38,208 nucleotides of DNA from a virus (lineage: Duplodnaviria > Heunggongvirae > Uroviricota > Caudoviricetes). This document shows positions 10,629 through 14,178 of this stretch, piece after piece; position 1 is the stretch's first letter, and each line of letters starts with the position of its first letter. The stretch is taken from positions 64,001 to 102,208 of IMG/VR virus record IMGVR_UViG_3300048838_001248, one strand, 5' to 3'. The position numbers and the translations under genes were made by a program. The notes under the pieces were generated by a model. That model was not told the DNA's origin. It made no database searches and saw only the letters and a list, made by a program, of their open reading frames with translations.

Positions 10629-11285
10629 TTATTCTCCCTTTTTACATTCACAGTCGGTGCAAGAACATCCACTTACTTCGTCTGGATTGTAATCTAATTT
10701 AATAATTCTTTCAGGACAACCATGAATTTCCATTGCTCTCACTGCAAGTGCTGCAACTTTCCTGAGTTCATGCGTTGCACCTTCTGTGTCAAGATGATAA
10801 ACCTTTTCTTTGGCTTTGCCTATATGGTATTCAATATAATTAATCCATTCAGCAACTGGTTTTTCTTCATCAGGAGTTCCATCCATTTGTCTGCGTGACC
10901 CCCAATTAGCATCTTGGTAATCTCTTTCACCATCAATGCGTGTATAAATTTCTTCTCTTTCCATAATTATTCCGTTTGTTAAGTTTAATCCAAAATGTAA
11001 TGTATCTTCGATTCTTGATTTTAAATCGAATAGGTTGAAATGTATAAAATCAACATAATTTATTATATCGTCAATTGAAGTAAATATAGTGAAACTATAA
11101 TTTTTCATATCTATATTTTTCACTTGCTTTAGTTCACATCCATTCTTTTTAGAATTATTTAATCCGATTTTTAGATATTCCGGTGTTAATTCTTCTGGAC
11201 ATTGCTCAATAGCTACCAATATTTGACTCAAATCAGTCCAAAAATGACTGTTTGGTTCTACATACATATAATAAGTATGTGTCAT
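10629..11285 (-). CDS. Unknown N-terminal domain fused to a MazG-like NTP pyrophosphohydrolase domain
   Basis: C-half ERDYQD..WG, EW..IEY, HELRKVAALAVRAME; possible internal start at 10964. Confidence 0.65.
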   Translation of the reverse strand: MTHTYYMYVEPNSHFWTDLSQILVAIEQCPEELTPEYLKIGLNNSKKNGCELKQVKNIDMKNYSFTIFTSIDDIINYVDFIHFNLFDLKSRIEDTLHFGLNLTNGIIMEREEIYTRIDGERDYQDANWGSRRQMDGTPDEEKPVAEWINYIEYHIGKAKEKVYHLDTEGATHELRKVAALAVRAMEIHGCPERIIKLDYNPDEVSGCSCTDCECKKGE

Positions 11286-11287
11286 AA

Positions 11288-11737
11288 CTATCTACGATTA
11301 GCCTTGCGACTGGCTTTTGCCTGTTTATTTTTTTTCTGACGATTTTTTCTATAGTCAGTACCGAATTTGGTAATGGTTTTATTGCCTTTGTGAATGGTAT
11401 TCTTAAATTTTATTTTAGAATCCTTGAGTTCTTTGACAACAATTTCATGCTTTTCGTCATCCGTCAATTCCCTTGTTTCAACAACACCGGACTTTGGGTC
11501 AAGGATTTTATATATTTCCTTTCCATCCTCACCTTCAACAGCAGGTTCTTGTGTTTCAACAAATTGAACATAGAATGTAGGGGATATTTTTATGTAATTT
11601 TTTTTGTTTAGGTCGTCTCCAACCAAAAGAAGTTCTTCATCAACTCCTTCCATTATTTTTTCTTCAATTTCAAGTTCATTGCTTAGATTTTCTGCTTCGG
11701 AAGTGAAAGTTACACCACGTTCTAATTCATCTGACAT
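11288..11737 (-). CDS. Hypothetical protein with acidic N-terminus and basic C-terminus
   Basis: 149-aa ORF; TAG stop. Confidence 0.8.
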   Translation of the reverse strand: MSDELERGVTFTSEAENLSNELEIEEKIMEGVDEELLLVGDDLNKKNYIKISPTFYVQFVETQEPAVEGEDGKEIYKILDPKSGVVETRELTDDEKHEIVVKELKDSKIKFKNTIHKGNKTITKFGTDYRKNRQKKNKQAKASRKANRR

Positions 11738-11802
11738 TTTAAATGTAAATTATATAAATGTTATTTTGGGTAAAACTAATCAATCTCCGGGATAAATGCA
11801 AG

Positions 11803-11828
11803 AAAAAAAGGGGCGAACCCCTTTTTTT
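11803..11828. terminator. Intrinsic terminator
   Basis: AAAAAAAGGGG-cgaa-CCCCTTTTTTT. Confidence 0.85.
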
Positions 11829-12147
11829 ATTTTTCATCCTTAATTTCATATTGCTTCAATAATTTATCAATATCGTATTGATATTTCTGAAGAGGATGGT
11901 TTTCTTCAGGATGGCAGTTTTCGATTTGTGAGAAACATTTACCTCTGGCAATACCATATGCTGCATACATGATGCGTAATTTATGACCATTTCTTTGATG
12001 CTCATATGTAGCCTCACTTGCTGGCATTATCCTATCACCTTTAATGTGAACGGTTTTTCTCTGATTTCTGTAAAATTTCTGAATTTCGGCTGCTTTTTTA
12101 ATTCCGTCTTTCATTTCTGCTATGTTTATATTAACTATTGTTTCCAT
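11827..12147 (-). CDS. Phage hypothetical protein downstream of the amber leader
   Basis: 106-aa ORF with LRIMYAAYGIARGKCFSQIE motif. Confidence 0.8.
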   Translation of the reverse strand: METIVNINIAEMKDGIKKAAEIQKFYRNQRKTVHIKGDRIMPASEATYEHQRNGHKLRIMYAAYGIARGKCFSQIENCHPEENHPLQKYQYDIDKLLKQYEIKDEK

Positions 12148-12185
12148 AATAATGTGTATTTAAATTTAAATTATTTTTATTTAAT

Positions 12186-12268
12186 ATCGCAAATTGCGAT
12201 ACGCAATATGCGAAATTTGATATCACATTTTGTGATTTCAAGTTCGCAATTCGCAAATCACGAACTTG
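12186..12268 (-). promoter_or_regulatory. Structured 5' leader of mutually competing hairpins and TTGCG repeats
   Basis: CAAGTTCG/CGAACTTG, ATCACA/TGTGAT, CGCA/TGCG, ATCGCAA/TTGCGAT; alternative pairs GTGATTT/AAATCAC and TGCGAA/TTCGCA. Confidence 0.65.
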
Positions 12269-12283
12269 GTCAGTATCACACTA

Positions 12284-12319
12284 TTATGGAGGTCTGATGT
12301 TTACCTATGTATCTTTCAT
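12284..12319 (-). CDS. Putative leader peptide MKDT(amber)VNIRPP
   Basis: ATG AAA GAT ACA TAG GTA AAC ATC AGA CCT CCA TAA TAG; starts 2 nt after the upstream stop. Confidence 0.6.
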
Positions 12320-12321
12320 AA

Positions 12322-12675
12322 TTATTCAAATTTAGATTTTAAATCGAGATAAAGATTATATTCCGCTTTTTTCTTTGCAGCTTCTTCTTCTTGTTTCCGG
12401 TCTTCAATGACCTTTTTACGTTCAGCCACCATGCGTTCAACTTCTTCTTCTCTTGGTTTAAATTGGTCTTGAATATCAACACCAATTTCTTTTTCGATAG
12501 ACTCAATACTTCTATCGTCAGCATCTTCCCATTTGGGAGATTTGTAGTCAGCATAAAGTTCATCAACCCATTGTTGAACTTCTTCCGGGGTTTCCACATC
12601 GTGCGTGCAGGTTTCTGTTCTTCTACAACATCCGCAACGATAACCATTACCTTGTTCATACGTAATTCTGTACAT
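12322..12675 (-). CDS. Hypothetical protein
   Basis: 117-aa ORF, CGCC motif, coiled-coil C-terminus. Confidence 0.8.
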   Translation of the reverse strand: MYRITYEQGNGYRCGCCRRTETCTHDVETPEEVQQWVDELYADYKSPKWEDADDRSIESIEKEIGVDIQDQFKPREEEVERMVAERKKVIEDRKQEEEAAKKKAEYNLYLDLKSKFE

Positions 12676-13009
12676 AGTCGTAATTTTTAAGTGCCAATTC
12701 TAATTTTTTTGTATGCATCTGCATTTCAGGAGTACCATAATAACAAATAGCAGTCATCTGGTTGTCGATGTCGGGTTCATAAAATGCCACAACATCAGCA
12801 CCATAGTACTGCAATCTATCATAAAGGTCTTTGAGTTTTTCCTCACCATCAATAGATAGTGATACGAGATATTGACTATCTCTCATCCAATCGTGGAATC
12901 GATTGGGAATTTTGTGTGCAAATTCTGCAATTGAATGACCTGTTTGTGCAATCTGTGCACCGGGTTTCAAGTCTGCCCTTACTACTGTTACTAATTTTAC
13001 CTACTTCAT
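12656..13009 (-). CDS. Pth2-like peptidyl-tRNA hydrolase with in-frame TAG at codon 3
   Basis: MK*VKLVTVVRADLKPGAQIAQTGHS and FYEPDIDNQMTAIC; the ORF-track TTG start omits the first beta-strand. Confidence 0.8.
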
Positions 13010-13068
13010 GATACTTGTTTTAATTGTTAATACTACTTGTTTTAGAACTATAAATACTTTTACATTTA

Positions 13069-13099
13069 CAAAGATACAAAAAAAATCTAATTTTGCAAA
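13069..13099 (-). promoter_or_regulatory. Bacteroidota primary-sigma promoter
   Basis: TTTG-N19-TATCTTTG upstream of the Pth2-like gene. Confidence 0.75.
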
Positions 13100-13362
13100 T
13101 TTTCTGCAACAAATTTTTCTGCATTGCTTCTTTTTCCAAAATATTTTAGTGTCCCACCGGGTTCATTCCACTTAGGATTGATGTACGGACCGGCTATTGT
13201 TCCTGCGGGATGCGTTTCCGGTACTTCATGTTTAAACCAACGCATAAAAAAATTACGAATGTCTTCACGAACTTTATGTTCGACCACATTTACGGTATAA
13301 TATTTATCACCTTTATAGATGTCAATACCGTCTTCAGTTGTAAACAATTTAACTTTTTCCAT
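13087..13362 (-). CDS. Hypothetical protein
   Basis: Start moved to MEKVKLFTTEDG; TAG stop. Confidence 0.7.
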   Translation of the reverse strand: MEKVKLFTTEDGIDIYKGDKYYTVNVVEHKVREDIRNFFMRWFKHEVPETHPAGTIAGPYINPKWNEPGGTLKYFGKRSNAEKFVAENLQN

Positions 13363-13501
13363 TTTCTTTGGATTTTTCAAATAATTCAATTTCTTCTCTG
13401 AATGGACATACCTGACAAATCTTAGCACCAACTTTTCTTTGTCTTTTACAGTTTTTGTAAAACCACGTCTCTTTTCCGTCTTTATAAAGTTTATCCTTCA
13501 T
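13349..13501 (-). CDS. Small Cys-containing protein (50 aa), not in ORF track
   Basis: MKDKLYKDGKETWFYKNCKR...ICQVCPFREEI. Confidence 0.65.
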   Translation of the reverse strand: MKDKLYKDGKETWFYKNCKRQRKVGAKICQVCPFREEIELFEKSKENGKS

Positions 13502-13514
13502 ATTATTTTATTTG

Positions 13515-13586
13515 AGGGCATAACGGGATTCGAACCCGTGGACATCGGTTTTAGAGACCGACTGGCGAACCAACCGTCATATGCCC
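13515..13586 (-). tRNA. Amber suppressor tRNA (anticodon CUA)
   Basis: Acceptor GGGCATA/TATGCCC; anticodon arm TCGGT-CTCTAAA-ACCGA; T-arm ACGGG-TTCGAAT-CCCGT; U73; weak D-arm. Confidence 0.85.
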
Positions 13587-13587
13587 G

Positions 13588-13857
13588 TTAATCATCTTCA
13601 AATTTAAATATTTTTTTTCTTATAATTGCATAATTTGTAAAACACAAGCACATTATTTTGAACTCTTTCCCTTCTTTTGCCACCTGATAAATATATTTCT
13701 CACCTTCTTTAATCACACGCTGCAGTTCATTCATATTAATTCCCCATTCCTCTCTTTCTTCTGGTGTACTATTCTGCATTATATAATCAAATCCATCACA
13801 ATTCCGGTCAAATTCCGAAACCGGATAGGTTCGTTTAAGTAGTTCAAAATCTTTCAT
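13588..13857 (-). CDS. Hypothetical protein
   Basis: 89-aa ORF. Confidence 0.75.
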   Translation of the reverse strand: MKDFELLKRTYPVSEFDRNCDGFDYIMQNSTPEEREEWGINMNELQRVIKEGEKYIYQVAKEGKEFKIMCLCFTNYAIIRKKIFKFEDD

Positions 13858-14178
13858 CTAATTTAAAAAGAATTTTGTTTCCCCAATCTTTTCTATTGCT
13901 GCTGGCATTTTGGTTAACCCACAATCAAGAATTAACTTAACGATTTCATCAAGCTGTTCACCTAACTGGTCTTGTAATTCTTTGGGGGTTTTATTTGGGT
14001 CAGAAACTCTGGCAAATATAACTTCATCAAACCTATCGGTTTTGACATAAATTTTGCTGCTCAAGACATGATTTTCTTTCTCATCTCTTTCCCTTTTAAT
14101 TGTTCCATGAAAGCATCTGCTCCAATCAGCTTTTGCCATGAACATTTCCGTTATCTCAACTTTCAATTTTTTCATCAC
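13858..14178 (-). CDS. Hypothetical protein
   Basis: 106-aa ORF; its TAG is directly followed in frame by the next ATG. Confidence 0.75.
   Translation of the reverse strand: MMKKLKVEITEMFMAKADWSRCFHGTIKRERDEKENHVLSSKIYVKTDRFDEVIFARVSDPNKTPKELQDQLGEQLDEIVKLILDCGLTKMPAAIEKIGETKFFLN

Follow-up and report, generated by a model that had tools for sequence, protein, structure and literature searches.

Many phages carry suppressor transfer RNAs (tRNAs) without recoding their genomes, and the locus described here raises the question of what one such tRNA might be for. It lies in IMG/VR virus record IMGVR_UViG_3300048838_001248, a phage-like contig of 102,208 bp with 34.6% GC, whose final 38 kb (positions 64,001 to 102,208; 38,208 nucleotides (nt)) were analysed and are referred to as the window. 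A tRNA gene with anticodon CUA is followed there by a Pth2-like gene with TAG as its third codon and by a very short open reading frame (ORF), itself interrupted by TAG, which precedes a gene for a protein of 106 amino acids (aa). We propose that this mini-ORF is the leader of a translational attenuator that reports whether the phage suppressor tRNA decodes UAG, and we assign this reading a probability of about 0.78.

A leader frame that contains a stop codon

Read on the minus strand from 12319 to 12281, the DNA gives ATG AAA GAT ACA TAG GTA AAC ATC AGA CCT CCA TAA TAG, as an initial annotation of the locus had described. The leader M-K-D-T-TAG-V-N-I-R-P-P-TAA (12284..12319) contains an internal TAG (12305..12307), an R-P-P tail (12287..12295) and a terminal TAA (12284..12286), and a second stop, TAG (12281..12283), follows directly. 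A spacer of 136 nt separates the 11-codon leader from the 106-aa ORF (11827..12147, minus strand), the presumed regulated gene. The annotation had proposed looking upstream of homologues of this gene for a conserved in-frame TAG combined with RPP or GPP, and the comparison finds such a pattern. We fetched 134 related loci, limited the count of conservation to the 89 distinct loci in which 220 nt or more of upstream sequence was available, and took all codon, stop and tail statistics over 84 distinct leaders. The mini-ORF stands ahead of the 106-aa homologues in 81 of the 89 distinct metagenomic phage loci; the eight exceptions comprise four loci with an HNH-like gene inserted at the leader spot, one rearranged locus and three with a variant TAG leader carrying R-G-S-P. 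The internal stop is TAG in 81 leaders and TAA in three, and the terminal TAA directly follows Pro in 83. The last residue is Pro in every leader (84/84), preceded by another Pro in 76 and forming R-P-P in 68, while the tails RSP, RAP, RGP, KPP, LPP, NPP, WPP and VPP are tolerated. Counted from the internal stop, the last Pro codon lies 9, 12, 15 or 18 nt away, always a multiple of three, and 15 nt away in 65 leaders. A strict pattern, defined as ATG, a single in-frame stop and then Pro-Pro-stop within at most 17 codons, occurs in 76 of the 84 true leaders and in only one of 3651 random 330-nt windows from the same loci. The Arg codons vary among leaders (AGA, CGA, AGG, CGC) and the first Pro codon is free at its third position, and this synonymous variation indicates that selection acts on the peptide. 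As judged from the alignments, what selection preserves is a translated frame with a stop codon inside it.

The identity of that stop codon follows the anticodon of a nearby tRNA. The window's tRNA-CUA (13514..13586, minus strand; found by ARAGORN, Rfam tRNA score 46.7 bits) is an amber suppressor and the presumed trans-acting input, and among the 48 distinct relatives with enough flanking sequence 44 carry a suppressor tRNA within about 3 kb, always on the same strand. The leader stop and the anticodon are paired as TAG with CUA in 53 loci and as TAA with UUA in three, with no mismatch. In these three loci (L068, L111 and L127), and exactly there, the leader stop and the codon-3 stop of the Pth2-like gene are both TAA; even if the shift was a single evolutionary event, it involved three sites at once. 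Suppressor tRNAs are highly diverse in this phage family, with 43 distinct sequences and several body types; that of the window has a weak D arm, and two loci (L048 and L061) each hold two tRNA-CUA genes.

The second gated site is the Pth2-like gene itself (12656..13009, minus strand), whose in-frame TAG occupies codon 3 (13001..13003). Its match to Pfam family PF01981 (28.6 bits, cut-off 23) begins at residue 4, just past the TAG, and covers only profile positions 1-79 of 115; its NCBIfam score is 22.8 bits, where the cut-off is 82. Of 51 distinct relatives, 48 have an in-frame TAG at codon 2-3, and the three tRNA-UUA loci have TAA there. The TAG comes straight after the Pth2-like start codon in some relatives, and in the most distant clade (L129-L133) the gene has no gate and lies downstream of the 106-aa gene.

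Suppressors of Escherichia coli work better when a purine stands 3' of the stop codon. The base after the leader's gated stop is a purine in 80 of the 84 leaders, with the bases further on varying among relatives. Among the 19 TAGs that end genes in the 102-kb genome the next base is T or C in 15 and never G, whereas it is A or G after the gated TAGs, and these contexts fit the roles assigned to the two kinds of stop. The initial annotation had also drawn attention to the TAG context TAGGTAAA, shared by the leader and codon 3 of the Pth2-like gene. The identity is real, and it is probably a coincidence: the genome holds five copies and the bases after the TAG are variable in relatives.

The leader spot also receives insertions. 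In L001-L004, L011-L013 and L017 a gene resembling HNH or homing endonucleases sits exactly at the leader (at about 2500-2830 in L001), in frame and ending on the leader's TAG, and in L038, L051, L055 and L105, which also have an HNH-like insertion, the leader is lost and the start region of the 106-aa gene is unmasked. Variant leaders occur about 100 nt upstream of the gene: two (L106 and L116) read M-K-x-x-TAG and then R-G-S-P, with no stop directly after the Pro, and one (L007) has TGA at the expected Arg position. These may be elongation-arrest versions or decayed copies.

A helix across the start codon

The initial annotation had placed competing hairpins built from TTGCG units between the leader and the 106-aa gene. 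Such hairpins are present, though the decisive structure is a long-range helix between the leader and the start codon. In this closing helix, of 13-14 bp, the leader contributes its final Pro codon, the UAA and the 7 nt that follow (CCAUAAUAGUGUG), which pair with CACAUUAUU-AUG-G. As delimited from minimum free energy (MFE) and centroid folds, duplex energy and covariation, its 5' strand (12277..12290, minus strand) comprises the last base of the first Pro codon followed by CCA, UAA, UAG and UGUG; its 3' strand (12143..12156, minus strand), delimited from folding and covariation, is CACAUUAUU-AUG-GA and includes the 106-aa start codon at 12145..12147. The window's duplex has an energy of -17.6 kcal/mol compared with -3.3 +/- 1.9 in shuffles, and across leaders the values are typically -10 to -18 kcal/mol compared with -3.3 +/- 1.8. 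Both the MFE and the centroid fold of the window include the helix (z = -6.95 against shuffles); for the 136-nt spacer the MFE is -52.3 kcal/mol.

The comparison of relatives points to the same helix. At least eight contiguous pairs form in a fixed register in 58 of the 84 leaders, and the paired fraction over all 84 is 0.83 in that register as against 0.28-0.53 when it is slid by 1-3 nt. Compensatory changes occur in several columns, one pair appearing as AU in 46 leaders, GU in 11, GC in five and UA in two. A distant clade, at 35-55% protein identity, retains the pairing logic with different sequences: its post-stop GAUUAUUUCUUUU stands opposite the pre-AUG AAAAGAAAUAAUC, and GAUUAUUUCUUA opposite UAAGAAAUAAUC. 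RNAalifold, applied to 65 leaders, predicts the closing helix and no other. Of the first 62 distinct leaders, 50 have a second in-frame stop after the first, and the final Pro codon is CCA or CCG with few exceptions; complementarity between leader and start region explains both of these features as well as the conserved bases before the AUG. The 35 nt before that AUG are nearly free of G, with A at position -3 in 60 of 63 sequences. We also considered AACAATTAAA, found before the start, and rejected it as a genome-wide signal.

To the ribosome, the helix is predicted to present a different obstacle at each of the leader's two stops. We modelled a ribosome by barring from pairing the nucleotides from -12 to +15 around the first base of the P-site codon, and computed from constrained partition-function folds the cost of opening the start region from -12 to +8. 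In free RNA the median cost is 8.3 kcal/mol (13.0 for the window). Placing a ribosome at the internal stop gives 8.6 kcal/mol (14.8 for the window), and placing it at the terminal stop gives 2.9 kcal/mol (2.7 for the window). The genes here lack Shine-Dalgarno sequences, which together with the G-free start region and its A at -3 suggests that the host is probably one without Shine-Dalgarno-guided initiation. In Bacteroidetes, initiation is tuned by mRNA structure and by A at -3 (PMC6847099), and a helix that hides the AUG fits the structure-tuned initiation of such hosts.

The spacer enclosed by the closing helix (12157..12276, minus strand) is rich in TTGCG/CGCAA units and forms several hairpins, among them one of 13 bp (12239..12268), one of 6 bp (12222..12236) and a composite CGCA/TGCG structure (12183..12217), all on the minus strand. 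Its modules differ in number, identity and orientation among relatives, and the inner hairpins may only bring the strands of the closing helix together, or may bind a factor. The spacer is a mosaic of short palindromes (TTCGCAA/TTGCGAA, ACGTAA-N-TTACGT, ACAAAATGT repeats and UUGAGGUCAC-N5-GUGAUGUCAA) that are shuffled, repeated and inverted between loci and have no other occurrence in the 102-kb genome. A candidate pairing of the Pro-codon region with GAGGUC arms of the inner hairpins was dropped, as it fails for the commonest codons.

The spacer is also where a transcriptional mode of control would have to act. Under this alternative, which we regard as quite unlikely, the position of the ribosome at UAG or at UAA would set whether transcription stops, through Rho or a terminator, before the 106-aa gene, as in tna and trp leaders. 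An engineered TnaC leader with an inserted UAG acts in this manner according to the summary in PMC6412442 of Liu et al. 2011, and the untranslated stretch between leader and gene, 58-214 nt across loci, would leave room for it. The sequence of the spacer, however, argues otherwise. It contains no hairpin followed by a U-tract, in which the locus differs from trp- and his-type attenuators; over 11700..13700 on this strand the only terminator-like site lies past the 106-aa gene. Being C-poor and highly structured, the spacer would make a poor loading site for Rho. Moreover, the AUG itself lies within the sole universally conserved covarying helix, an arrangement that marks translational control. 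Transcriptional and translational modes could nevertheless coexist.

A proposed attenuator and its alternatives

From the conservation, the covariation and the folding energetics we infer readthrough, stalling and induction in the following form. In the resting mRNA the closing helix would hide the AUG of the 106-aa gene. A ribosome released at UAG, the fifth codon, would cover about 10 nt beyond it; the helix starts 15 nt further on and would stay intact, leaving the gene off. Should tRNA-CUA insert an amino acid at UAG, the ribosome would continue for six codons and be held at R-P-P-UAA because Pro-Pro peptidyl-tRNA is released slowly. The held ribosome would cover the whole 5' strand of the helix, thus opening the AUG to a second ribosome, and slow release after Pro-Pro would give initiation enough time on the exposed start. 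Production of the 106-aa protein, and of the Pth2-like protein with its UAG at codon 3, would then require working suppression. This is essentially the core proposal of the initial annotation, in which readthrough moves the ribosome six codons to an R-P-P-stop stall and the refolded leader gates the 106-aa gene; the strict frame, the synonymous codons and the match of stop to anticodon lend it comparative support.

Stalling after Pro-Pro has precedents. In hCMV (human cytomegalovirus) upstream ORF 2 (uORF2), Pro-Pro before UAA silences termination (PMC4605324), and in the RAPP/RGPP arrest peptides an R-x-P beside the catalytic centre forms the core (PMC10951233). An alternative without a stall is that readthrough is needed and a passing ribosome opens the helix on reaching UAA, the R-P-P being kept for another purpose such as the released peptide or RNA pairing. 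That the helix takes in the last Pro codon, and that a range of other tails is tolerated, would be in keeping with this. Yet the Arg and the first Pro, both outside the helix, are still kept through synonymous changes, the final Pro is invariant (84/84) even in the clade whose helix starts past the stop, and the passage of a ribosome would open the helix only very briefly; we find this alternative as improbable as control of transcription. Least credible is the notion that the mini-ORF is not one translated unit, the TAG ending a 4-codon ORF and the remainder being kept as RNA or DNA, for instance as operator sites or a homing-endonuclease target, for although the palindrome-filled spacer, with some modules in either orientation by locus, and the HNH-like genes that insert exactly at the leader spot would suit it, it leaves unexplained the strict frame, the synonymous Arg and Pro changes and the shift from TAG to TAA together with the anticodon.

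Several observations weigh against the attenuator reading. At eleven residues the peptide is short for one that arrests ribosomes. The final Pro codon, CCA, lies inside the helix and pairs with UGG of AUG-G, and its invariance may be partly an RNA constraint. In about eight leaders an ATG directly follows the TAG, and reinitiation there could bypass the gate. The tail I-K-x-R-S-P is common to the three TAA/UUA loci, which may form one clade and go back to a single evolutionary event; their leaders also end in TAA, which could itself be suppressed. Finally, the model assumes that the leader and the 106-aa gene lie on one transcript.

With these points acknowledged, the working principle of the proposed attenuator is that of erm- and cat-type translational attenuation with a new input, the suppression of a stop codon. 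As in ermC/ermB, cat and cmlA, a short leader ORF precedes a helix over the initiation region of the next gene, and a ribosome held on the 5' strand of the helix would unmask the start. The trigger in those systems is an antibiotic, whereas here it would be the decoding of an in-frame stop by a suppressor tRNA, and no antibiotic-type motif is evident in the leader; the stall would occur at a stop after Pro-Pro, and what the helix hides is the AUG, not a Shine-Dalgarno sequence.

In TnaC and hCMV uORF2 the ribosome is held with peptidyl-tRNA(Pro) in the P site. Both resemble the present leader in having Pro or Pro-Pro directly before the stop (R-P-stop in TnaC, P-P-UAA in hCMV gp48 uORF2; PMC4605324), and differ from it in other respects, since this leader has only 11 residues, no Trp or Asp sensor residues and no small-molecule inducer, and since its output would be activation through RNA refolding rather than Rho antitermination or a block to scanning. 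The RAPP/RGPP peptides ApdA and ApdP (PMC10951233, PMC7897499) likewise place a C-terminal Arg-x-Pro at the peptidyl-transferase centre and regulate the next gene, with R-P-P and the variants R-S-P, R-A-P and R-G-P as the counterparts here. In those peptides, however, the A site holds a Pro codon rather than a stop (TAA), so that the leader falls outside the RAPP definition; it also lacks a long N-terminal sensing part, and an unannotated 106-aa gene stands downstream where ApdA and ApdP have Sec/YidC genes. The leader belongs to none of the TnaC, hCMV uORF2 or RAPP families.

Readthrough and a termination stall are combined in one device in the AMD1 C-tail (PMC13025110) and in E. coli PepNL (PMC11890864), as is proposed here. 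In AMD1, a eukaryotic case, the stall reached through readthrough represses the mRNA on which it occurs (PMC13025110), and in PepNL readthrough cancels the stall (PMC11890864). In the present leader, by contrast, readthrough would be required to reach the stall, the stall would activate the downstream gene, and the tRNA that reads the stop is encoded nearby. A comparable design is the engineered amber leader switch of Liu, Qi, Yanofsky and Arkin (2011), which, as outlined in PMC6412442, also uses a leader UAG to tie a downstream gene to an amber suppressor tRNA; as described there that switch is synthetic and transcriptional, acting via the tna leader, whereas the one proposed here occurs naturally, is widespread in phages and, on present evidence, acts on translation. 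Our literature searches found no published natural leader-peptide switch that senses stop-codon suppression, and the locus would thus realise a design until now built only by synthetic biologists.

Genome-wide recoding does not account for the gated stops. We rejected it for TAG, which terminates 19 of 131 long ORFs and which adds little coding coverage when read as sense, and likewise for TGA. The Pth2-like gene is the only convincing coding sequence on the contig with an early in-frame TAG, other ATG-x-TAG starts not being convincing, and the gated sites found in the genome number only two, this gene and the leader. As in code 15 phages (bioRxiv 10.1101/2021.08.26.457843), a phage tRNA-CUA would make some genes dependent on suppression; unlike in those phages, the genome as a whole is not recoded, and one of the two gated sites is a leader rather than a coding sequence. 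We lean towards the view that the suppressor tRNA serves as a private, orthogonal regulatory signal rather than as an agent of recoding, with a tiny regulon made up of the Pth2-like codon-3 stop and the stop-gated arrest leader. In that case the leader would sense the state of the genetic code, that is, the balance of suppressor tRNA and release factor, and both proteins would handle or exploit readthrough.

The locus would assign a specific and testable job to the suppressor tRNA of a phage that does not recode, and the 106-aa and Pth2-like proteins become candidate factors acting during stop-codon readthrough. At least 84 distinct leaders provide natural variants for the study of R-x-P-stop stalling, of UAG context and of start masking in hosts without Shine-Dalgarno initiation, and they could yield compact building blocks for suppressor-tRNA-dependent circuits.

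The 106-aa protein and the genome setting

The protein of the 106-aa gene, a gene that the initial annotation left unassigned, has at least 194 homologues, all unannotated; their contigs reach 372 kb and derive from sludge, sediment and wetland samples. AlphaFold2 predicts three long helices (predicted local distance difference test score 91). The protein has no match in Pfam, PHROGs or NCBIfam, and fold searches (Foldseek against PDB and AlphaFold database clusters, VIA-align wide and the ESM Atlas) returned only generic helical-hairpin matches, the best with Z 6.3 and with E above 0.2, so that the fold gives no function. Pfam, PHROGs and NCBIfam likewise offer nothing for most neighbours of the gene.

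The minus strand carries almost all genes of the contig, which has 28 tRNA genes, one of them with anticodon CUA. Relatives share the order suppressor tRNA, Pth2-like gene, optional insert, leader, 106-aa gene and three more unknown genes. In the window the insert is a 117-aa gene (12322..12675, minus strand), with no family match in Pfam, PHROGs or NCBIfam and present in only 8 of 88 loci bearing the 106-aa gene (L001-L088). The leader starts 2 nt past its TAA, and the initial annotation had described it as translationally coupled to the upstream gene; this close spacing is not conserved in relatives, and the coupling does not carry over to the family.

An intrinsic terminator (11803..11828, minus strand), with an 11-bp stem followed by a T run, ends the transcription unit after the 106-aa gene. 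A sigma-70 promoter scan of the locus performed no better than on shuffled sequence. By eye, a TTTG ... TAnnTTTG motif of the Bacteroidota promoter type can be seen at 13060-13090, upstream of the Pth2-like gene, and it is a candidate promoter for the operon to which the leader belongs. Comparison of 11000..14000 with 50,697 phage records by blastn gave no match, and an Rfam scan found tRNA only and no known leader, riboswitch or ribozyme.

An apparent 196-aa ORF with an in-frame TAG (13588..14178) was rejected as a single gene. It consists of two small adjacent genes joined in frame through TAG-ATG, and the junction is kept in 23 distinct relatives; given this conservation, amber suppression would fuse the two genes.
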